A stretch of 64,000 bases of DNA from Ostreococcus lucimarinus (taxonomy: Eukaryota). The stretch is taken from the NCBI GenBank assembly GCA_000092065.1, contig CP000585.1. The stretch is one strand, 5' to 3'. Position 1 is the first letter of the stretch, and each line of letters begins with the position of its first letter. Made by a program: the position numbers and the translations under genes. The notes under the pieces are model-generated. The model had not been told where the DNA came from. It worked only from the letters and a program-made list of their open reading frames with translations, and made no database searches. Positions 18,809 to 30,497 of the stretch are shown here, one piece after another.

Positions 18809-20536
18809 ATGAGTCGGCAGAGAGAGTCGAAGGAGGAAGTCGCGCGACGAGCGTTGGCGGAGTTTAGTTCGCAGATCGAAGAGGTTACGCGGAGCTCGGG
18901 GGACGCGACGACGAGGGCGCGGGTGGAGCGACATCTGACGCGATTGCCGAGGCAGTACTCGCTGGACGTGAACTATCTTGAGGATATTCTCGCGCACGCG
19001 GATATTCTGGATAAGGCGGCGACGGATGATCGCGAAGGGACGGGGGGGCGGAGGTCGGGGGTATGGTGCACGTGTCGCGAGGTCGACGTGTCGAGAAAGA
19101 ATGCAGAGGTCGTCGACGCCATGGATGCCGACGATTCGACGTCGATGGATCATAACTCGCGCGGCGTGGATATTCTACGTCATGGAAGTGGGTACGGGGG
19201 ATCACACAGCGGGTCGACGAGACCCAATTTGCGCGCGCCGACGTTTGGTTCGAGCTTGACGTTGACGATGCTCGGCAGTACGGCGGATCCTCGACAGGTG
19301 GGGATGTACGAGATCGCGGTGAGCGCGGGGAACAAACCACGTTTACTCTCGCGCGTGTCCGCCGTTTTATTCGACGTTGGGTTGAACATTGCCGAAGCGC
19401 ACGTTTTTTGCACCGACGATGGTTACGCGTTGGATATTTTCATAGTCACGGGTTGGCGACAAGGAGACGCGGCCTCGGTGCAATCAGCCGTACAGACAGC
19501 ATTAGATGCCGCGGACTTTAGCGATTTACCGGCATCTTCGAAAGGAACGAACGCGATCACCTCCAGTCAAGGATCTGAGGGCAGGATGTCGAACCCCTCT
19601 GGCGATAGGTCAAACTCAGATTCCATCTCCATAGACGGCGGCGAATGGGAACTCACTGAAAAACAGCTCGTGTTTAACGAAAAGATCGCTAGTGGAGCGT
19701 TTGGGCTTTTGTATAGGGGGAGCTACTGCGGCCAAGAGGTGGCCATCAAAGTCCTGAAGAGCAACGCCGCGGAGGGCTCGGGGGCCGAGACGTTGCGCGA
19801 ATTCGCGCAAGAGCTCAACATTTTGCGACGTGTTCATCACAAGAACATCATACAGCTCATCGGAGCGTTGACAAAGCAAAAAACGATGTGTCTAGTCACC
19901 GAATTCATGCACGGTGGGAACCTTCTGCAGTACGTGCAAGAGCACGCGCTCAAGCTTCCCGAGCTCATTCGGTATTCTCTAGGAGTCGCCATGGGTTTGG
20001 ATTACTTGCACAAGATTAACATCATCCATCGCGACATCAAGACGGCGAACTTACTTTTGGATGAAAATAACGCGGTGAAGATCGCAGACTTTGGCGTCGC
20101 GCGCATCCAGCCCACGGATGGGTCAACCATGACGGCGGAAACCGGCACTTACCGATGGATGGCGCCCGAAGTCATCGCGCATCAATTCTATAACGAGAAA
20201 GCTGACGTGTACTCGTACGGTATCATGGTTTGGGAGCTCGTGAGTGGCGGCGAAGTACCTTATCCCGGCTACACCCCCTTACAAGCCGCTGTCGGCGTCG
20301 TGCAGCGCGGGTTGCGACCGACGATTGCTCCGTCGTGCCACGCCGTCATCGCGCAAGTGATGCAGTACTGCTGGCTCGTCGACCCCAACGCCCGCCCTGG
20401 TTTCGAGCAAATCATCTCGTTGCTAAAGCACGTCGACGTTCCGCGCGAACAAGAGGGCAAGCACGGGTTTTTCGATCGTTTGAGATCGGTGAGCTTCAAG
20501 TCAAAGAAAAAGGAAGCACAAACGCGCAGCGGTTGA
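18809..20536 (+). CDS. Ser/Thr (dual-specificity, TKL/STY-type) protein kinase with an N-terminal ACT domain
   Basis: The track start at 18776 is a GTG, and the first in-frame ATG is at 18809 (MSRQRESKEE). The ACT-like segment is VGMYEIAVSAGNKPRLLSRVSAVLFDVGLNIAEAHVFCTDDGYALDIFIV. Kinase motifs present are GSGAFGLLYRG, VAIKVLK, HRDIKTANLLLDE, DFGVAR and GTYRWMAPE. Confidence 0.85.
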   Translation: MSRQRESKEEVARRALAEFSSQIEEVTRSSGDATTRARVERHLTRLPRQYSLDVNYLEDILAHADILDKAATDDREGTGGRRSGVWCTCREVDVSRKNAEVVDAMDADDSTSMDHNSRGVDILRHGSGYGGSHSGSTRPNLRAPTFGSSLTLTMLGSTADPRQVGMYEIAVSAGNKPRLLSRVSAVLFDVGLNIAEAHVFCTDDGYALDIFIVTGWRQGDAASVQSAVQTALDAADFSDLPASSKGTNAITSSQGSEGRMSNPSGDRSNSDSISIDGGEWELTEKQLVFNEKIASGAFGLLYRGSYCGQEVAIKVLKSNAAEGSGAETLREFAQELNILRRVHHKNIIQLIGALTKQKTMCLVTEFMHGGNLLQYVQEHALKLPELIRYSLGVAMGLDYLHKINIIHRDIKTANLLLDENNAVKIADFGVARIQPTDGSTMTAETGTYRWMAPEVIAHQFYNEKADVYSYGIMVWELVSGGEVPYPGYTPLQAAVGVVQRGLRPTIAPSCHAVIAQVMQYCWLVDPNARPGFEQIISLLKHVDVPREQEGKHGFFDRLRSVSFKSKKKEAQTRSG

Positions 20537-20765
20537 CGAACGCCGCGACGACGCCCGTGCGTCGTAGTCTTAGCTACACGAATTACGCGATGTATGACCG
20601 CGTGTCTGTTATTCAAAGCGAGTCACTCGTCGCTTTCTCGAACAACCACTCCGTCCCGCGTCCCTCGTGCCGCACACCGCCGCTCGCGCTCGCGCGAGCG
20701 CGGTTTCGATGTCCGATCATGGCTCTCGCCCTCCTCGCCCAGGCAGCACGCTTCTCTTCAGAATC

Positions 20766-20948
20766 ATGAACCCCGAACTGTTCTACACCGTCCCCAAGCC
20801 CGTTCTCGCCGTCGGCGCCGCCGTCGTCGCCGTCGCGTGCGCCAACACCGCCCGTCTCGTCCTCACCGCCGACCGACCCGAGCGCGACGCCGCGCGCGCG
20901 CGCGAAAACTTCGTCGACGACGACGACGGCGACGACGCGCAGCCGTAG
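20766..20948 (+). CDS. Candidate small single-pass membrane protein (60 aa: MNPELFYTVPKPVLAVGAAVVAVACANTARLVLTADRPERDAARARENFVDDDDGDDAQP)
   Basis: An ATG-initiated ORF in the 600-bp gap between two plus-strand genes. It has one hydrophobic helix plus an acidic tail. I recognise no homology, and in GC-rich DNA it could be spurious. Confidence 0.25.
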   Translation: MNPELFYTVPKPVLAVGAAVVAVACANTARLVLTADRPERDAARARENFVDDDDGDDAQP

Positions 20949-21135
20949 CCGTAGCCTTAGCCGTAGAATCCCAGCCCGCGTTCGTCCCAGCCGCGCCGCG
21001 CCGCGACCGCGACGCGTCGCGGTCGCGCGTCCAACACTATTAGTGTTACACTAAACGGTAACGCTCGACCGATCGAGCGACGCGACACAGCGCGACACAG
21101 CGCGACGCGCGCGCGACCGGACGCGCGCGGTCGTC

Positions 21136-24100
21136 ATGGACGTCTCGGTGTTCGCGACGATCGACGCGCGATCGGGCGACGGCGGCGACGCGGGCGCGGC
21201 GACGCGCGCGCTGGCCGTCGTCGATGACCGCGCGGATGCGACGGACGCGCGACGCGCGCGCGGCGTGGCGATGACGCGCGGTGGCGCGCTGTGGAGCATG
21301 ACGCAGGTGTACGCGATGTTGCTCGTCGTCGTCGTCGGGTATAACGCGACGGCGAGCGCGTTTCGGGGACGGCGATTGGATCTGAGCCCGGAGGGGATGA
21401 TGTTGGCGGGCGGCGTCGACCCGGCGACGGTGGCGAGGTATAACGCGACGCACGGCGCGGCCTTTGGGTACGGAGCGAACGCACAGAGAACGAGCGCAGT
21501 CGCGACGCGGTGGCGACACGTGACGCGGTACGCGATTCGAGGTTCGTTCAACGCGGCCGCGGGGGCGGCGGTCGGCGCCGTCTCGCAAAGCGCGCGTTTG
21601 GCGCGAGGAAGCGTGCGATTACTCGTGCCCGCGCTCGAACGCCTGGGGCTTGGCGCGATCGTGGACGCGGTGGCCATTGTGAGCTCGACGGCGACGTCGT
21701 CGGTGAGGAATATGGTGTGGTTGGTGATGTTCGCGTCGACGCCCGTCGTCGATTTCACGCTTTTGCCGCTGTACGATTTCGTCCTCGACGGTCTCGAGCC
21801 GTTGTATCAGACATTCTTCACGGGTACGATGGATTTCTTCGAGGACATGACGTTTAACCTGGAGCAAAATCTTGCGACGGTGCTCGACGCGCGTTTGCTT
21901 TCGGTGATCAGGCGACCGATGCGAATATTCTTGAACCCGTTCAAGTGGCCGAGGGCACTGTATGACGCCTTTATTCGTCCCGCGTACGAGTTTTGCGCCT
22001 ACCCCGAGCTCTTCGACGCGCTAGACGAGCCCGTGCGGCCCATCGTGAAGCGTACGTACGGTGATAGATGTCGAGCCAGCGCGTGGGGGGATTGGACCAA
22101 GTGCAGCATGCAATGCGGTAGCGGTTTCAGAGTGCGCGTAAATCACTGCGGCAAAAAGCAGTACGAGCGATGCGTCGGCGCGGGCGTCGTCGGCTGCGAC
22201 GGCGTGTGCGATAGCGGCTTGCGAACCGACTGCAACGGCATGTGCGGTGGCAAAGCACTTCTCGACAAATGTGCGGTTTGCGGCGGTAACAACGCCGCCA
22301 TCGGCTGCGATGGCAAGTGCTTCAGCGGTATGCGAGAAGATACAGTCGGTAACTGTTGCCACGCGGCGACAATCACCGCGAGCGGCATGTGCGGAGAAGG
22401 CGACAACTTACCCGCGCATCTTAAGGCGGCAGCGGCGGCGGCTCGCGCGAAGGCGACGTCCGCAAAGAAGAATGTCTCCCTAGTGCGGCGGTTCATCAAC
22501 TTCGTGAAAGCGACGCTGCGTTTTGCGTTGAAGGCGGTCCTCGCCGTCCTTCGCGTCGTCGCCTTCGCCATTCGATTTGTTTCGGCGACGGTGACTTTTA
22601 CGCTGCACACTCTATTTTCTTCGGCCAGTCTGAAATTGGTCGGAACGCTCACTGCGTGTTACATGGCGATTGGGGTAGTCGATAAGAAGGCTCAAAAGAA
22701 CGTTGGGCAGTTTATTCGCGAAGTTGTCCCTTTCATGGATGAAGACGCAAAGGACGAGAGTCGAGTCGTCGGCGCATTCTCGAAAGCCCAAGCGGCGAAG
22801 ACGCCCAAGGAAAAGATTGAAGTCTTCGTCAAGGACCTCATTGAGAGCTTTAAGCGCGCGGGCGACGTTCCTGGTTCGATCGCGCACTATCTATCTTGGC
22901 TATGCAAGCGCTTGTACGGCGTAATCGTCGTTGTATCGCCTTTTATTCTGCAATTTCTTCGAGATGCGTCTTACGAAAACGTCGTGAGCGCACGGGCGCA
23001 GATGGCCAAAAAACATGAAGAGGCCGAAAACATTAAACGACAAAACGAAGAGCTTGCGAGGCGAATCGAGCAAGAGGTGCGCGCTGATGAGGAGCGCGAG
23101 AGACTCATGAGCGAAGCGGCAAAGGTGCGAGAAGAAGCCGCCAAAGCTGAACGTGAAGCGGCGGAGCGAGAGCAAGCGCGTCAAGAAGAAATGGCTCGCC
23201 TCACGGAAGCAGAGGCTCAAGCAAAGACGCAATTGGAAGAAGAACGAAAGAGAGCCACCAATATACTAGAACAAGAACGTGCTCAAGCGAAAGCTCGCCT
23301 CGCGGCGGAAGAGGCTCGTTTGAAGGAAGAAGCTGAACGGATCAAGCGAGAAGCGGCCCTGAAACAAGCAGAGCTGGAGCGTGAACGACAAGCGGAGCGA
23401 GAGCGCCTGGTGCGTGAAGAAGCCGAACTCAAGGAGCGTCTCGCTGAAGAGGAAGCGAAAGCGAAATCACATAGATTTGATGAGGAGGAGGCACTCAAAG
23501 TGCGCCTTGCGGAGTTGGAGGAGCGAATGAAGGAGCGCAGTGACGTCATAAAGAGGCTCGAAGCGGCGGATGTCGAAGTCAAGAAAGCCGAAGTCAGTCA
23601 GATGACGAATAGGGCTACTTCAGCTGCAGTACGTTTGGAGACGGCCGAGAACGAATTAGACAGCATGGCCAAACGCATAATCACGTTTGAGAAGGCGAAC
23701 ATGGGTAAAAAGTACGCACTCCAAAGCAAGCGCGCCATGGCAGACGCCAAGGAATACTGCGGGCTGCTTTCTGACTTTTTTGTGAGGAACGACGAACACC
23801 TTAAAGCGGAAGAAGAACTATCGATAATCACGAAATACCGAGACTTATCGAACGACGCGCCGGCTGCCCTCGTGGCCCGCTTAGAGGACGTCTCCGAGGT
23901 TCCCATCGCGATTTCGAAGCGGTTCAACTTTTTGCTCAAATACCGTGCTCGACGCAACGCCATCATCGTCTTGTCGAAACTTTCGGCGAGGCATCCTGAG
24001 GATGCGGTCAGACGCAAGTGCTTCGCCGCGTTGAACAAAATCACGCGGTCGTCGACGTTTGGTCTTATCGTCTCGGCGCGTTGTGCAGCGCTTCCAAACG

Positions 24101-24627
24101 CTCTAATGGCGATGGTGGAATGGGCGAGCTTGGGCGAAGAACGTATAACGGAGGACAACGCGCCGTGGGAGGCTATGGAACTTGTTCATAATCTCGTCTC
24201 CAGTCGACGCATGAAGCGCTCGGAAGTTCTTAGGCGCCATCTCGCCGGTGGGCTCTTCGGTCGCTGCATCTTGGCCGTGGTTAAACTCGTTCCACACATT
24301 CCCAGTTTTCAAGGAATGATCTTGGGAACGCTTTGGCAGCTCATGCGTGCCTCTGGTTACGATGCGACGCTGCAAAACGCCCTCGTCGCTGACGGCATCA
24401 TCCGCCACATCCTGGACTGCAAATCGTACGCCAAACAAAACAGTGAAGTCGCGCGCGTCTTCTGCGGCTGCGCTCTCGCGCTCGCCATGAACAACGAGCC
24501 GGTGCAAAAGCAAATGTTTGACAAAAAGTGGCCCGCGCGCATCGTCAAAATTTTAAGCCTTCACCAGGCGATCGATTACAAAGGCGAGTTCACCACGCTC
24601 AACGACTGGCTGTCGTCGAATGCGTAG
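21136..24627 (+). CDS. Large (1,163 aa) membrane-associated protein with a thrombospondin type 1 repeat, Cys-rich CxxCGG modules, transmembrane helices, a Glu/Arg/Lys-rich charged coiled-coil region and a C-terminal armadillo-like region
   Basis: ATG verified at 21136. The TSP1 signature is WGDWTKCSMQCGSGFRVRVNHCG. Cys-rich repeats are CDGVCDSG...CNGMCGG...CAVCGGNN...CDGKCFSG. Hydrophobic stretches include LKAVLAVLRVVAFAIRFVSATVTFTLHTLF. The charged region reads EEARLKEEAERIKREAALKQAELERERQAERERL. Confidence 0.7.
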   Translation: MDVSVFATIDARSGDGGDAGAATRALAVVDDRADATDARRARGVAMTRGGALWSMTQVYAMLLVVVVGYNATASAFRGRRLDLSPEGMMLAGGVDPATVARYNATHGAAFGYGANAQRTSAVATRWRHVTRYAIRGSFNAAAGAAVGAVSQSARLARGSVRLLVPALERLGLGAIVDAVAIVSSTATSSVRNMVWLVMFASTPVVDFTLLPLYDFVLDGLEPLYQTFFTGTMDFFEDMTFNLEQNLATVLDARLLSVIRRPMRIFLNPFKWPRALYDAFIRPAYEFCAYPELFDALDEPVRPIVKRTYGDRCRASAWGDWTKCSMQCGSGFRVRVNHCGKKQYERCVGAGVVGCDGVCDSGLRTDCNGMCGGKALLDKCAVCGGNNAAIGCDGKCFSGMREDTVGNCCHAATITASGMCGEGDNLPAHLKAAAAAARAKATSAKKNVSLVRRFINFVKATLRFALKAVLAVLRVVAFAIRFVSATVTFTLHTLFSSASLKLVGTLTACYMAIGVVDKKAQKNVGQFIREVVPFMDEDAKDESRVVGAFSKAQAAKTPKEKIEVFVKDLIESFKRAGDVPGSIAHYLSWLCKRLYGVIVVVSPFILQFLRDASYENVVSARAQMAKKHEEAENIKRQNEELARRIEQEVRADEERERLMSEAAKVREEAAKAEREAAEREQARQEEMARLTEAEAQAKTQLEEERKRATNILEQERAQAKARLAAEEARLKEEAERIKREAALKQAELERERQAERERLVREEAELKERLAEEEAKAKSHRFDEEEALKVRLAELEERMKERSDVIKRLEAADVEVKKAEVSQMTNRATSAAVRLETAENELDSMAKRIITFEKANMGKKYALQSKRAMADAKEYCGLLSDFFVRNDEHLKAEEELSIITKYRDLSNDAPAALVARLEDVSEVPIAISKRFNFLLKYRARRNAIIVLSKLSARHPEDAVRRKCFAALNKITRSSTFGLIVSARCAALPNALMAMVEWASLGEERITEDNAPWEAMELVHNLVSSRRMKRSEVLRRHLAGGLFGRCILAVVKLVPHIPSFQGMILGTLWQLMRASGYDATLQNALVADGIIRHILDCKSYAKQNSEVARVFCGCALALAMNNEPVQKQMFDKKWPARIVKILSLHQAIDYKGEFTTLNDWLSSNA

Positions 24628-24805: not shown

Positions 24806-26482
24806 ATGCCACTCGAGCGCGGCGACGTCGGCGACGCGATGGTGCGCGCGCCCGCGGTGCCGGCGTCGTCCTCGCCCCGCGCCGACGCTTCGGCTTCGTC
24901 ATCTTTCGTTGACGTTCGTGAGGACGTCTCGCGAGACGATACCGATGCCGTTCGCGCGCCGAGCTCGCCCGCGCGTAGCGGGAGTAAATTGTGGGGCATC
25001 GCTCGCGCGCGGGTTCGAGACGACGCGGATGTCGCGAGAGGACGCGTCCGGGACGCGCTGCGGGACGGCGAGGACGCCGCCGCGGCGAACAAACCCGCGC
25101 GACGAGGACGTCGACGGATGAGCACGGAGTATGAAAATTATTTGCGACCGATCTTAGATAGAATGCCGGTGAAGCCAGAGCGCGTGAGTGCGGTGAATGG
25201 GCCGTTGATGAACGTCACGAGGATTGACGACAAGACGCTCGACGTAAAGATGACGACGTCGTTTCGAGCGCACTTTGGAGAATCGTTACCGAGTATTGGT
25301 CGACGCTCGTTGGCGCTTCCAGAGAGCGAAGGCGATGGGCAGAAAATCGTTGCGATCGGAAACAGCGGATGGATCGATCAAAACGCGGGCGGTGTGCAGA
25401 TTTCGGAGTTGGACTCGGGAGACTTCGTGCCGGGACGCGGGGGGCGGTATTCGGTCATGACGCCGGAGGATAGCTGGGGTGCGACCGAGCTTCGCGCGCC
25501 TTCACCCGCTATTGGATGGTACGATGATAATGAAACAACGAGTGATTCGCTTCAAACGGAGTTTCTGATCGACCCCGAGGACGTGCGATTGCAGGAGCGC
25601 ATCGCCGTCGGCGGTTTTGCCGAGGTGTTCAGAGGCACGTGGCAAGGGACCGTGGTTGCCGTGAAGCAGCTTTTAGAGCGCTCGAGCGAGGTAAAGACGA
25701 CGTTAGAAAGGGAGGTTGAGGTGTTGGCTAAGTTACGTCACCCAAACTTATTGCTGTTCATGGGATATTGCGTCGAGCCGCCGTTGATTTGCACGGAGTT
25801 TATGCGACGTGGATCGTTGCACACAATTTTAAAGTCAGGAAACGTGTTAGAACCGGCGAGGAACCATGCGGTCGCCATCGCAGTCGCGCGTGGGATGTCG
25901 TACTTGCATTCGCGATCTCCACCAATACTACATTTGGATCTGAAGAGTCCGAATATTTTGGTGGACGAGAAGTGGCGCGTGAAAATCGCTGACTTTGGCC
26001 TCGCGCGCATGCGCCAAACGACACAAGTCAGCGCGAAGAGCGAGTTTCACGGCACGCCAGAGTGGATGGCCCCAGAGATGCTGCGTGCTGAAGACTTCGA
26101 CGAACGTGCGGACTCGTACTCGTTCGGCGTCGTTTTGTGGGAACTTCTCACGGCGCGAAAACCGTGGATGGATTTACACCCGATGCAAATCGTCGCCGTC
26201 GTCGGTTACTCCGAACGCAAGCTCGAACTTCCACCCGAGGGCGTACCCGCCGCCGATCACGACTTCACCATCCTCCTCTCTGATCTCTTCCGCGCGTGTG
26301 CTCAAAAAGATCCGACAAATCGTCCGCTCTTCCCCGCCATTCTCGACGCTTTGGAAACCGCTCGCAAGCGCGTCGCCGCCGACGGCGCGAGCGCCGCCGC
26401 CGCCGCCGCTCCCAACCCGTCCGAGCGTTTGGGCGTCCAATTAGAAATCTTAGACCTAGCCAAAGACCGCGCGAGCGGCTGA
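24806..26482 (+). CDS. Raf-like (EDR1/CTR1-type, TKL) MAPKKK-family protein kinase with a long low-complexity N-terminal region
   Basis: ATG verified at 24806. Kinase motifs are IAVGGFAEVFRGTWQGTVVAVKQL, HLDLKSPNILVDEKWRVKIADFGLARM, GTPEWMAPE and SFGVVLWELLT. The N-terminal ~100 aa are Ala/Arg/Asp-rich, so the start could be a later Met. Confidence 0.85.
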   Translation: MPLERGDVGDAMVRAPAVPASSSPRADASASSSFVDVREDVSRDDTDAVRAPSSPARSGSKLWGIARARVRDDADVARGRVRDALRDGEDAAAANKPARRGRRRMSTEYENYLRPILDRMPVKPERVSAVNGPLMNVTRIDDKTLDVKMTTSFRAHFGESLPSIGRRSLALPESEGDGQKIVAIGNSGWIDQNAGGVQISELDSGDFVPGRGGRYSVMTPEDSWGATELRAPSPAIGWYDDNETTSDSLQTEFLIDPEDVRLQERIAVGGFAEVFRGTWQGTVVAVKQLLERSSEVKTTLEREVEVLAKLRHPNLLLFMGYCVEPPLICTEFMRRGSLHTILKSGNVLEPARNHAVAIAVARGMSYLHSRSPPILHLDLKSPNILVDEKWRVKIADFGLARMRQTTQVSAKSEFHGTPEWMAPEMLRAEDFDERADSYSFGVVLWELLTARKPWMDLHPMQIVAVVGYSERKLELPPEGVPAADHDFTILLSDLFRACAQKDPTNRPLFPAILDALETARKRVAADGASAAAAAAPNPSERLGVQLEILDLAKDRASG

Positions 26483-26659: not shown

Positions 26660-28384
26660 ATGAATCAACGTTCCTCGCCGGTGCGCGCGACGAACGCGAC
26701 GAACGCGACGCGTCGAGCGATGAATTCGCGCGCAATTAAACGTGTGACGACGACGACTGACGACGACGGAAACGACGCGGAAACGACAGACACGACGCCC
26801 GTGTACGCGACGTTCGCGGAAGACGTGACCGGGTTCTTCGGAAAGTGGAACTTGCAGCCGAACGCGCCGCGGTCGAAACGACTCGGGTCGCCCGCGCGCG
26901 ACGGCGGCCGCGGCGGCTCGGGACGCGCGGTCGGGACGTCTTCGCCGCCGCCGCGCGAACCGAAGTGGACGGACGAAACGGATGAGGACGATGAATATTT
27001 ATTTAGTGATCACGACGCGGTGACGCCGGCGGCGAAACGGCGAGTGGTGTCGTTCGAGAGGGTGAGGAGCGTGCCGGGGGCGCGCGCGGCGCGCGGCGCG
27101 GGGAACGCGGCCAAGTTGGCGGCGAAAAGTTTTAAGCGGTTCACGAGTCGGGCGGCGCGAGGCATGGTCGGGGTTCTGAGCGATCGCTCGAGCGTGTTCG
27201 ACTTTAAGATGTTTAAGCTCTTCACGTTCGTGTTGAACGTGACGCTGAGCACGTTTGAGATCCCAAGGCAGTTGATTTTGATTCCTCTCATCGTGGGCAG
27301 TCGATTGGCAATGGTGCCGGAGTGGCTGCTGAGCGCGTTCGAGTATGATTCGTGGGAGATGCCGAGAGCGAAAAAGAAACGCCCCAAGTTAAGCACCGAT
27401 TTTAAGTTCCCGACGCTTCGTTGGAATGCTTTGAAGACGTGGGAGAACGCGATGCAAGCGGGGAGAGAGAGTTTACGCCGCGTCGAGTCGCAAGTGCGCA
27501 CCGAGCCGGGTGAGACGCCGGAGATGAGAGCGGTGATTGATAAACTTATCGAGGAAGGTTTGGCGTACGACAAGGCGTGCGATAGCCAGAAGTCGCAGGC
27601 TGCGTTTGAGCGCGCGCTCGAGCTAAGACCGAAAGATCCGGTCGTGATGATTTCTTTGAGTAAGGAACTCAGCGACCGCGTCTTTGATCACGAAATTTTC
27701 CACAACAAGCCGCAGGCGAGACAGCTTGCGTCGAGAGCCGCTGATTTAGCATCGGAGGCGATCGAACTCGCACCTGAGAACGCACAGTGCTACATCGCGC
27801 TGGCCGTGGCGAACGCGCGGTTGAGCATGTTCAGCGACGCGCGGCAAAAGGTGGAACTCACGCACTCGATTAAAGGAAATTTAATGAAGGCGTTGGAAAT
27901 CGAGCCCGAGAGCGATTACGCCTATCACGTGCTGGCCAGATTCGAGCACACCATGGCGCACATCGGTGGATTGATGCGGTATTTAATCAAGACAATATAC
28001 GGCGCCATCGAACCGGCGACGATCGAGCGGGCTGAGGAGTACTTCAGGCGAGCGATTGAAATCAATCCAAAGCGCCTGATTCACGGCGTTGAGCTCGCCA
28101 AGCTTCTGTACGAAACGAAGCGATATGACGAGTGCAAAGAATTGTTGGTGCCATCGATCGAGCTAGAAATCGAAGACATCAACAGCGTGCGGACGAAGAA
28201 GGACGGCGAAGCGTTACTTAAGAAGTTGACCAACAAACTCAACAGGACGCCGAGTCGTCTCTCGATGTCTCGCACACCGTCCAAGCATCGTCTTCCGCGT
28301 ACCTCGTCCTCGTCGCACACTCCGATGTCGCCGTTGACACCGATCTCACGCAATAACTCCAAGGGCAGCGGGCTCTTTGATTAG
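26660..28384 (+). CDS. TPR-like repeat protein with an N-terminal hydrophobic anchor (architecture reminiscent of RMDN/FAM82-type proteins)
   Basis: ATG verified. The C-terminal half has TPR-like helical repeats (AAFERALELRPKDP..., AYHVLARFEHTMAHIGGLMRYL..., EEYFRRAIEINPKRL...). A hydrophobic segment LFTFVLNVTLSTFEIPRQLILIPLIVG is present. The family assignment is tentative. Confidence 0.55.
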   Translation: MNQRSSPVRATNATNATRRAMNSRAIKRVTTTTDDDGNDAETTDTTPVYATFAEDVTGFFGKWNLQPNAPRSKRLGSPARDGGRGGSGRAVGTSSPPPREPKWTDETDEDDEYLFSDHDAVTPAAKRRVVSFERVRSVPGARAARGAGNAAKLAAKSFKRFTSRAARGMVGVLSDRSSVFDFKMFKLFTFVLNVTLSTFEIPRQLILIPLIVGSRLAMVPEWLLSAFEYDSWEMPRAKKKRPKLSTDFKFPTLRWNALKTWENAMQAGRESLRRVESQVRTEPGETPEMRAVIDKLIEEGLAYDKACDSQKSQAAFERALELRPKDPVVMISLSKELSDRVFDHEIFHNKPQARQLASRAADLASEAIELAPENAQCYIALAVANARLSMFSDARQKVELTHSIKGNLMKALEIEPESDYAYHVLARFEHTMAHIGGLMRYLIKTIYGAIEPATIERAEEYFRRAIEINPKRLIHGVELAKLLYETKRYDECKELLVPSIELEIEDINSVRTKKDGEALLKKLTNKLNRTPSRLSMSRTPSKHRLPRTSSSSHTPMSPLTPISRNNSKGSGLFD

Positions 28385-28517
28385 ACCTATTATCGCCGAC
28401 GGTGAACCCAGCGAGGCGTATGTAATAAAGCACCGACTAGTGAGCAGCATCAGACAAACAGAATCCACTTTCTTCAGACACCAGCGCGCATCGCGTCGCG
28501 TCGCGCGAATCGTCGCC

Positions 28518-30497
28518 ATGGCGCCGAAGAAAAAGTCTGCGCACATCGCCCGCATGGCGGCCAGCGCGCAGAAGCGCGAGCGCGGTGACGTTTTGAGCGG
28601 CATTCGCGCCGCCGCCGAGGAACACGCCGCGGAAGACGGACGCGTGGACGCGCGACGAGGCATGGCGACGACCGTGTTCACGGTCGAGAGTCTCGGGTTA
28701 AAGTCGACGAAGACGCGGGCGAGCGAGAAGAAGCGCGGGATCGGTAGCGGCGGAGCACACCGAAGAGGGGTGACGACGGTGCTCGCGGCGGAGGCGAGCT
28801 ACGACGTGGAGCGACGCGTTCGAGACGGCCGACGACCGTTGATGAGCGAGCCGAGAGGGTACGACGAACGAACGCCGGACATGTTTCAAGACGACGCACG
28901 GTCGTTGAGGTTGATGCCGGCGCGGCCGAAATGGGATTATGAATTGAAAAGAGGACGGTTGCACGCGAGAGAACGAAAGGCGTTCGTGAAGTGGTTGCGA
29001 TCAGCAAAGGAGGCGATGATCGAGGCTGGGGGGTACGCACCCGCGTTTGAGCAAAACATAGAGGTTTGGAGACAGTTGTGGCGGGTGTTAGAGCGCTCAG
29101 ATGTGGCTGTGGTGGTCGTCGACGCGAGGAATCCGATGTTGCATTTGCCGCCAGCGTTGTATGCGCACGTGACGCGGCGATTGTGCAAACCTCTCGTCGT
29201 GGTGTTAAACAAGACGGATGCGGTACCGATGCGTGCGATCGATGAATGGGCTGCACATCTTATGGCGTCTTTGCCGGGAATCGACGCAGTTGTCGGTTTT
29301 TCTTCCCGCGACGAAGCACCCGAGGACGAACGGTTTTGGGATCGCAAGGACAAAAATCACGAGGAGCGAGACAACGCGTCAGTGCGCATGCACCGTCAAT
29401 CGAGTATTCCCATCGGACGCGACGCGTTACTGCGCGTGTGTCAAGAGCTCGCGCGTTCGGGCAAACGTTTCGACGCGGCGATGGAAGACACGATGGAAGA
29501 CGAACATGATGGAAACGACGACGGCGAAGAAGAAGGGGAAGAAGAGGAAGAAGAAGAAGAGGTGGACGAAGAGGGCGAAGCGTACGTGCGGCAGGCGTTG
29601 AATCAAGAGCGCGAGGAAGCAGAACGAGTGAAAGCTGAAGGCCGAATAATGATAGGACTCGTCGGGCACCCCAACGTGGGTAAGTCTTCGATGGTAAACT
29701 CTATTCTTCGACGTAAAGCGGTGAGCGTGAAGGCGACGCCGGGACACACGAAGACATTGCAGACGCTCATTTTGGACGATCACACGTGCTTGTGCGATTC
29801 TCCTGGCCTAGTATTTCCCCGCATCGATATTTCTCCCGCGGAGCAAATCATCGGCAATCTCATTCCTCTTCCAGTCGTCCGCGAGCCATTCAGCGCTATT
29901 CGTTGGATCGCCGAAGCAAAGCTCGTCGGTGCGGAGCGGTGGCAAGCGATTCAGCGCAAGTTCAGTGGGTCAAGTGATGGTAAGCTCGCGGCATCGCTCG
30001 CCGCGCCTATTACGAGCGTGCTGAAAGTTCGACCATCGAAGGAGTTCGATCCTGAGACGCTCGAGTTGCTGAACAACGAAGATTTGACAAACGACGAATT
30101 GCCGTGGTCGCCGCTCTCGCTGTGTCAAGCGTATGGCAAGATGCGAGGATTCGTGAAAACGCGCGGCGTCGACGTCCAACGCGCGGGGCAAGTCATTCTG
30201 AGCATGGTTTACGACGGCAAGATTCCGTACGCGATTCCGCCGCCGACCGGCGCGCCTGTGATGCGTTCGAAGGCGGATGTCGTCCAAATCGAAGAAGACA
30301 ACTTAACCGACGACGAGTCGGATGACGACGAAGTCAACGTCGTACGCTCTGGGTTCTCCGCGCTCGCCATGGATTCGGACGAAGAGACAGCGGCTCAGCA
30401 GTACGCTTACAGCTCGGACGAGGACACGAGAGGGACATTCATTTTGAGCCCTGAAGATCTCAAGGAATCCAAACGAGGCCAGCGCGGTAAAAAGTAA
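28518..30497 (+). CDS. LSG1: Large-subunit GTPase 1 (Lsg1/GNL1-like, circularly permuted YlqF/YawG GTPase)
   Basis: The start is taken at the ATG at 28518 (MAPKKKSAH, Lsg1-like), because the track start at 28377 is non-ATG and overlaps the upstream gene. Motifs appear in the permuted order G4 VVLNKTDAV, then G1 GHPNVGKSS, then G3 DSPGLVFP. The conserved segment is FEQNIEVWRQLWRVLERSDVAVVVVDARNP. An acidic (GAA)n-encoded poly-E insert is present. Confidence 0.85.
   Translation: MAPKKKSAHIARMAASAQKRERGDVLSGIRAAAEEHAAEDGRVDARRGMATTVFTVESLGLKSTKTRASEKKRGIGSGGAHRRGVTTVLAAEASYDVERRVRDGRRPLMSEPRGYDERTPDMFQDDARSLRLMPARPKWDYELKRGRLHARERKAFVKWLRSAKEAMIEAGGYAPAFEQNIEVWRQLWRVLERSDVAVVVVDARNPMLHLPPALYAHVTRRLCKPLVVVLNKTDAVPMRAIDEWAAHLMASLPGIDAVVGFSSRDEAPEDERFWDRKDKNHEERDNASVRMHRQSSIPIGRDALLRVCQELARSGKRFDAAMEDTMEDEHDGNDDGEEEGEEEEEEEEVDEEGEAYVRQALNQEREEAERVKAEGRIMIGLVGHPNVGKSSMVNSILRRKAVSVKATPGHTKTLQTLILDDHTCLCDSPGLVFPRIDISPAEQIIGNLIPLPVVREPFSAIRWIAEAKLVGAERWQAIQRKFSGSSDGKLAASLAAPITSVLKVRPSKEFDPETLELLNNEDLTNDELPWSPLSLCQAYGKMRGFVKTRGVDVQRAGQVILSMVYDGKIPYAIPPPTGAPVMRSKADVVQIEEDNLTDDESDDDEVNVVRSGFSALAMDSDEETAAQQYAYSSDEDTRGTFILSPEDLKESKRGQRGKK

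Follow-up and report, generated by a model that had tools for sequence, protein, structure and literature searches.

Characterized thrombospondin type 1 repeats (TSRs) are extracellular or secretory-pathway binding modules, and armadillo (ARM) solenoids serve as scaffolds that bind peptides in the cytosol or the nucleus. The nearest functional analogies for a protein that appears to hold both are the apicomplexan adhesins TRAP and MIC2, taken together with the ARM/HEAT connector GAC, and the TSR receptors of metazoans. Here we analyze an open reading frame (ORF) of 3492 nucleotides at positions 21136-24627 (+ strand) of a 64,000-nucleotide stretch of Ostreococcus lucimarinus contig CP000585.1 (the window), which encodes a protein of 1163 amino acids (aa). 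The ORF is one intron-less gene for a membrane protein whose family is restricted to the Mamiellales. Its domains are arranged in the order tail, hydrophobic helix, novel helical N-domain, TSR, four Cys-rich modules, a 62-aa hydrophobic block, a variable helix of the Glu/Arg/Lys-rich (ER/K) type and a domain with a predicted armadillo fold. We suggest, with a probability of about one half, that the product is a transmembrane linker or receptor with its TSR head outside the cytosol and its armadillo end within it; location, membrane topology and ligands are all inferred.

The analogies hold only in part. Compared with TRAP and MIC2, the protein lacks a vWA domain and any apparent short acidic tail, and its N-domain is unrelated. 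Compared with GAC, which is one of many generic ARM matches of the C-terminal domain, the ARM domain is fused to a membrane protein by a long rod instead of forming a separate connector; gliding motility is not known in these algae. The ancillary region of ADAMTS, ADAMTS-like and papilin proteins also has a TSR followed by a Cys-rich stretch, whereas the protein described here has no protease, disintegrin or spacer domain and would be membrane-anchored, not secreted. The direct relative is an uncharacterized O. tauri protein with a longer charged helix. Its TSR is already recognized by automatic annotation, while the full architecture and the one-gene status are new here, as are the armadillo fold predicted for the C-terminus, the rod's ER/K character and variable length, and the fixed 62-aa block with its basic stripe. 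Within the searchable literature no paper on the family came up, whether looked for by domain plus taxon or by accession. As loose context, Table 1 of PMC8163842 gives an orthogroup with the TSP1 repeat as an indicator that a stramenopile is phagotrophic and not phototrophic.

One gene and its family

A search of 5.8 billion proteins yielded 70 relatives at 42-99% identity, mostly full length, which group by pairwise identity into about eight Ostreococcus/Bathycoccus-like lineages; full-length orthologs stand at 42-91% identity. The domains keep their order in these lineages and in Micromonas. The lineage P0064 is that of O. tauri, whose annotated protein (XP_003079355.2 / CEF97985.1 / A0A090M164; P0173, 1310 aa) aligns over residues 5-1307 with residues 4-1160 of the window protein at 41-47% identity, its domains in the same order; another (P0065) includes O. 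mediterraneus UniRef entries. An initial reading of the stretch made from the letters alone (the sequence-only reading) had stated that the protein has no obvious named ortholog. A0A090M164 does bear a name, “Thrombospondin, type 1 repeat”, although that name is domain-derived and says nothing on function. The ortholog search in Mamiellophyceae that the same reading had proposed, a choice of group that proved right, gave relatives in the eight or so lineages and, in addition, in Micromonas. Here two distant proteins (P0154 and P0156) share the ectodomain with the window protein at 34% identity (E 9e-49) and, at 24% identity, its C-terminal domain as well (E 1e-20; probability 99% by hhalign), and since their genomic neighbors cluster at at least 90% identity with proteins of Micromonas commoda RCC299, we regard them as the Micromonas orthologs.

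The gene is a single conserved one, detected in the Mamiellales only. A profile of the N-domain (aa 60-312) run against 1.84 billion representative proteins recovered only the known family and three more distant proteins, and the apparent restriction of this domain to the Mamiellales is newly described here; we regard as spurious a match of the N-domain profile to a 2183-aa repeat protein (P0157, E 2e-4). When metagenomes were scanned with the C-terminal domain, only lineages already known came back, no viral homologs were found in IMG/VR, and no paralogs were found in the window. Separate homolog searches with the ectodomain and the C-terminal domain gave 2 and 5 matches, their lists apparently filled by unrelated sequences, and added an O. 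tauri fragment (P0148).

The sequence-only reading had also raised the possibility that the ORF is fused from two genes, with a junction near nucleotide 22500, and this fusion is not borne out. An O. mediterraneus protein of 1035 aa (A0A7S0KCM2, P0095) aligns without a break to the equivalent of residues 89-1163 and so crosses the junction; as A0A7S0 accessions presumably come from transcriptome assemblies, one mRNA would then cross the suspected fusion point. The ORF is also continuous in every lineage, including Micromonas at 33-35% identity, and the same features stand at the same positions in every ortholog, which rules out a chance origin for them. Two adjacent genes read as one is therefore an explanation that these data largely refute, and we consider it highly improbable. 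The start of the window protein, MDVSVFA, lines up with the annotated O. tauri start, MSVNSVFA, and this alignment of the N-termini supports the ATG at 21136.

Some family members carry database names of another kind. Fragments in the clusters of the window protein and of P0069 are labeled in JGI/IMG as “KaiC/GvpD/RAD55 family RecA-like ATPase” or “chemotaxis protein histidine kinase CheA”. We found no match to a RecA-like P-loop ATPase of the KaiC/GvpD/RAD55 type in Pfam (E<=1) or NCBIfam (E<=1), and the CheA label is equally unsupported by Pfam and NCBIfam; both labels are probably artefacts of prokaryote pipelines acting on the charged helix. One relative at 91% identity (P0002) is deposited as MDA9766523.1, “hypothetical protein N9D08_00705 [bacterium]”, and appears to stem from a picoeukaryotic algal contig binned into a bacterial metagenome-assembled genome.

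The TSR-bearing head

The segment WGDWTKCSMQCGSGFRVRVNHCG (aa 317-339, nucleotides 22084-22152) had been called a canonical TSP1 repeat, with a domain search as the proposed check. The Pfam model TSP_1 (PF00090) matches at 23.1 bits (E 8.7e-5), above its gathering cutoff of 21.6, and the match covers profile positions 1-36 of 49 only. TSP_1 scores in orthologs range from 15.8 to 26.4 bits, at the same position in every one: four of seven Ostreococcus/Bathycoccus-like orthologs lie above the cutoff (24.4-26.4) and three just below it (17.2, 21.0 and 21.4), and the Micromonas proteins score 20.6 and 15.8. A margin of 1.5 bits, partial coverage of the profile and orthologs slightly under the cutoff would also be compatible with a chance pattern of Cys and Trp. 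Set against that explanation, which we again hold to be very remote, a profile of the family compared with PDB sequences matched almost only TSR chains (CSP circumsporozoite protein, TSP-1, F-spondin, TRAP and BAI1), down to E 4e-6, and the WxxW and CSxxCG motifs and the spacing of the Cys residues are invariant. Both the family comparison and the Pfam score thus uphold the original call.

The signature residues are W317-x2-W320, C323-S-M-Q-C327-G-S-G and R332-V-R334, with two Trp and not three. The Trp, Cys and Gly residues and the second Arg are invariant in eight lineages, and the first Arg position is occupied by Arg or Lys. Cys residues 323, 327, 338, 346, 354 and 358, together with C312, have a spacing compatible with a TSR when aligned to TSR2 of TSP-1 and to F-spondin, and the arrangement C-x4-W-x2-W-x2-C is that of the F-spondin type. 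The site for O-fucosylation by POFUT2, C-x-x-(S/T)-C-x-x-G, is absent, the sequence being C-S-M-Q-C here and carrying Gln, Glu or Lys at that position in orthologs; this site is an optional modification and no defining feature of the TSR fold. Judged by its sequence, a TSR is present.

The four CDG(V/K)C...CGG modules that the sequence-only reading had seen after the TSR are likewise there: GCDGVCDSG (353-361), DCNGMCGG (365-372), DKCAVCGG (377-384) and GCDGKCFSG (390-398), followed by CC407/408 and then C419. All 16 Cys residues across aa 312-419 are invariant in the eight lineages, and the Cys-module segment has the highest conservation in the protein (73% identity). These modules have no Pfam match, and ADAMTS_CR does not match them even at E<=10. 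The stretch DKCAVCGGNN shows a weak match over about 32 residues (E 0.04-0.05) to DKCGVCGGDNS of the ADAMTS5 Cys-rich region; as the sole match, and with no Pfam model behind it, it leaves membership of the ADAMTS Cys-rich family unsupported and serves as a lead only.

Ahead of the TSR, the N-domain has zero Pfam matches even at E<=10. Its second half (67% identity) is among the best-conserved parts of the protein and forms, with the TSR and the Cys modules, the most conserved part, the head. N103 lies in the sole universally conserved N-x-S/T sequon of the protein, kept in 8/8 lineages. The hydrophobic helix before the N-domain (aa 51-77) is a candidate membrane span in all Ostreococcus/Bathycoccus-like lineages scanned. 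Its motif W-x-x-x-Q-x-Y-A...Y is kept in Micromonas as well (P0158 and P0172), and because conservation of the motif reaches that far, the helix is probably a retained signal anchor and not a cleaved signal peptide.

Membrane block, rod and proposed topology

The cluster of hydrophobic helices described in the sequence-only reading is real at aa 455-516, but it amounts to one conserved block only, half of which is an amphipathic basic helix. The block is exactly 62 aa long in all eight lineages. Residues 451-484 have low identity, yet in 8/8 lineages their polar and basic side chains gather on a single face of the helix (resultant 0.69-0.83, reached by 1-31 of 2000 shuffles); the hydrophobicity of this helix also suffices for it to be scored as a possible span. 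The apolar half, aa 485-516, has an invariant Lys at its center and is the most likely span. A second hydrophobic patch at about aa 590-611 is not hydrophobic in other lineages and so is probably no membrane span. The insertion-energy scan used to find spans is a crude one.

The charged region between the block and the C-terminal domain had been described as a 300-aa single alpha-helix or coiled coil. It proved shorter, at about 210 aa (at most ~235), and of the two proposed forms the ER/K-like helix fits better than the classic coiled coil; the quoted EEARLKEE... string is present. Residues 620-830 consist of 26% Glu, 19% Ala, 15% Arg and 9% Lys (Glu, Arg and Lys together 50%), with no Pro or Gly in 211 aa and 16.6% strongly hydrophobic residues. 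Opposite charges are paired at i+3/i+4 84 times, against 54 +/- 5.7 in shuffled sequences, a value reached in 0 of 2000 shuffles. Co-occurrence of hydrophobic residues is enriched at lags 7, 11 and 22 (equaled in 53, 45 and 34 of 2000 shuffles) and is not above shuffles at lags 3 and 4 (1709 and 981 of 2000). Because the hydrophobic residues recur at 7, 11 and 22 and not at 3 or 4, the pattern favors a stiff helix of the ER/K type over a heptad coiled coil; weak dimerization is possible. In composition, in the lack of Pro and Gly and in the excess of i/i+4 opposite charges the rod resembles the ER/K single alpha-helix spacers of myosin VI and X, caldesmon and MAP7/trichohyalin-like proteins, but differs from them in its 19% Ala and in having a few hydrophobic residues spaced 7 and 11 positions apart.

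Conservation is lowest in the rod, which also varies in length, the linker that includes it (aa 612-848) ranging from 187 to 665 aa across the family. In a sister lineage (P0003/P0004/P0045) the helix is built of true tandem 11-residue units, KARLEAEEAEx, with autocorrelation peaks at 11, 22 and 33, and its length rises from 232 to 664 aa among near-identical variants, the ectodomains of which form a single cluster at ~90% identity. Such differences have the look of a rapid, population-level polymorphism in length. The helix-coding region of the window gene itself has no tandem DNA repeats. In the Micromonas proteins (P0156, L003 6001-8433; P0154/P0158/P0172) the Cys-rich modules are followed by a charged helical stretch, then by the hydrophobic block and after it by an Ala/Lys-rich linker, so that the long spacer sits on the opposite side of the block from that in the window protein.

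The C-terminal 333 aa had been read as a non-repetitive, ARM-like helical domain of ~330 aa, and the structural model agrees. AlphaFold2 gave a confident all-helical model with a predicted local distance difference test score (pLDDT) of 88.2 and a predicted template modeling score (pTM) of 0.87, and its best Foldseek matches were designed ARM proteins, though only at E ~0.01. The model is similar in three dimensions to solved ARM proteins, with a right-handed superhelix of three-helix repeats. These results support a predicted fold that is armadillo-like, with no specific ARM family nameable: no Pfam Arm or HEAT model matched at E<=10, and identity to armadillo-repeat proteins (beta-catenin/HMP-2, p120, RSP14, SmgGDS and ARO) is only 8-16%. 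The domain differs from those proteins in having about five repeats after a helical hairpin and in being joined to a membrane protein by a long rod. CENP-U, the sole match of the C-domain profile to PDB sequences (E 0.016), was dismissed as noise, as were matches to LMBR1, TFIID-31kDa, DUF5409 and U3snoRNP10, far below their cutoffs.

Taken together, these parts suggest the following arrangement, which agrees with the sequence-only reading of a surface adhesion or mechanical-linker protein, in itself a reasonable proposal. The tail would be cytosolic and the first helix a signal anchor that places a disulfide-rich head of ~375 aa on the extracytoplasmic side, outside the cell or in a lumen. 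The number of membrane crossings made by the 62-aa block would be odd, in the simplest case a single one at aa 485-516, with the basic helix before it lying at the interface. The rod, ~30 nm long if fully helical (211 residues x 0.15 nm), would then lie in the cytosol with the armadillo domain. There the armadillo domain may hold a cytosolic partner at a defined spacing from the membrane, and the ligand of the TSR head would be a glycan or protein outside the cell or in the lumen. The confinement of the invariant Cys residues and the conserved sequon to the head fits a head outside the cytoplasm and a rod and ARM domain in the cytosol.

Several observations speak against this arrangement. The insertion-energy scan gives two candidate spans in the block in most lineages; with an even number of crossings, rod and ARM domain would share the side of the head. 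The flank ahead of the block is more basic than the flank behind it, contrary to the positive-inside rule, and the charged helix of Micromonas precedes the block, which means that a cytosolic spacer is not universal in the family. The AlphaFold2 model of the ectodomain (aa 46-440, from an alignment of eight sequences) has a pLDDT of 39 and is unusable as support for the predicted TSR fold and disulfides, and the ARM assignment is that of a predicted model at 8-16% identity with no Pfam Arm match.

The first of these points would be accommodated if the 62-aa block were a helical hairpin or re-entrant loop and the rod and ARM domain were extracellular, forming a surface fibril anchored on two or three helices. 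The two candidate spans do not overlap, a fixed length of 62 aa suits a hairpin, the invariant Lys lies centrally in the apolar half, and in Micromonas the charged stretch directly adjoins the ectodomain. Behind the block, however, the remaining 650 aa hold no invariant Cys and no conserved sequon, against 16 Cys and a sequon in the head; extracellular ARM solenoids are essentially unknown; and the first candidate span carries the one-sided basic stripe typical of an interfacial helix. We consider a surface fibril unlikely.

A transmembrane linker with a cytosolic armadillo end could also reside in an internal membrane (endoplasmic reticulum, Golgi, vacuole or nuclear envelope) with the same architecture and topology. 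It would then act as an organelle or vesicle tether whose rod and ARM tip capture a cytosolic partner in the manner of golgins or p115, with the TSR head luminal. In having an ARM head at the end of a long rod the protein is similar to tethering factors such as p115/Uso1, and the rod would span 30-100 nm, which is large in a cell of ~1 um. The protein also occurs in Ostreococcus, a genus not known to have a flagellum, wall or scales, and it contains no surface-specific signal. This placement is possible, if doubtful.

Should the linker or receptor instead stand at the cell surface, a more speculative role can be imagined, to which we give little weight. The protein might be an order-specific “ruler” receptor of the smallest free-living eukaryotes, in which a surface TSR head is coupled to a cytosolic armadillo platform through a helix that quickly gains and loses 11-residue units, setting or sensing a fixed spacing of some internal structure from the plasma membrane; alternatively, it might serve in cell recognition or attachment, for mating or prasinovirus entry. 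In that case the N-domain would amount to a novel fold for extracellular binding. The cells of Ostreococcus, Bathycoccus and Micromonas are minimal, yet these algae are abundant among marine primary producers, and to our knowledge very little is known of surface receptors, adhesion, mating or virus attachment in them. An order-restricted, conserved protein with a TSR module and a scaffold on a variable rod is a genetically tractable candidate for such surface roles, O. tauri being transformable, and it would give the TSR superfamily a further, new architecture and define a new family of ectodomains. Should the protein prove to be a structural membrane protein of an ordinary kind, its wider significance would be small.

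Feature coordinates and neighboring genes

Table 1. Features of the gene at 21136-24627 and of its product, by residue and by position in the window; identities are between lineages.
Feature	Residues (aa)	Positions (nt)	Strand	Remarks
N-terminal tail	1-50	21136-21285	+	Poorly conserved, length variable, mean pairwise identity 33%; presumed cytosolic
First hydrophobic helix (ALWSMTQVYAMLLVVVVGYNATASAF)	51-77	21286-21366	+	61% identity; basic residues before it
N-domain	78-311	21367-22068	+	No known family; second half highly conserved (DGLEPLY...GTM.FFEDMTF.LEQNLA...LNPFKWP...AYPE)
Thrombospondin type 1 repeat	312-358	22069-22209	+	C-x4-W-x2-W-x2-C-S-x2-C-G-x-G-x-R-x-R...C...C...C-x3-C; 71% identity, length invariant
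Cys-rich modules	359-420	22210-22395	+	CxxxC/CxxC-GG units, then CC, C; 73% identity, fixed 62 aa
Ala/Lys-rich linker ahead of membrane block	421-450	22396-22485	+	Read from sequence; 40% identity
Amphipathic helix with Arg/Lys on one face	451-484	22486-22587	+	Helical-face analysis, 8/8 lineages
Conserved apolar segment	485-516	22588-22683	+	Motif FS..LK..G.LT..Y...GVVD, then DKKxQK
Juxtamembrane region	517-619	22684-22992	+	Small conserved motifs PF.D, VPGS, W, SP..L
ER/K-rich alpha-helical rod (predicted)	620-830	22993-23625	+	From composition, charge pairing and hydrophobic periodicity
C-terminal domain	831-1163 (333 aa)	23626-24624	+	Modeled as a helical hairpin, then ~5 armadillo-type repeats
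Stop codon		24625-24627	+	

The window has a GC content of 59%, is Ostreococcus/Bathycoccus-like and is found abundantly in marine metagenomes. Upstream of the gene lies a very GC-rich gap of 600 bp (20537-21135; 66-71% GC), which holds an Arg-rich ORF of 149 aa (20594-21043); the matching Logan contig has a 79-aa gene call there. The gap is probably non-coding or 5' untranslated region and not a gene. Genes for Ser/Thr/Tyr-type protein kinases stand on both flanks, at 18809-20536 and 24806-26482. The upstream kinase has a weak ACT-domain match and is conserved as a neighbor in the P0069 lineage and not in Micromonas, where the flanking genes of the orthologs differ (STT3, SET and MFS). Further downstream, a gene call of the RMD1-3/TPR type (26660-28384) overlaps by 8 nucleotides, on the same strand, a GTPase gene (28377-30497) that JGI names ribosome biogenesis GTPase A; the overlap reflects either very tight packing or a mis-called start.

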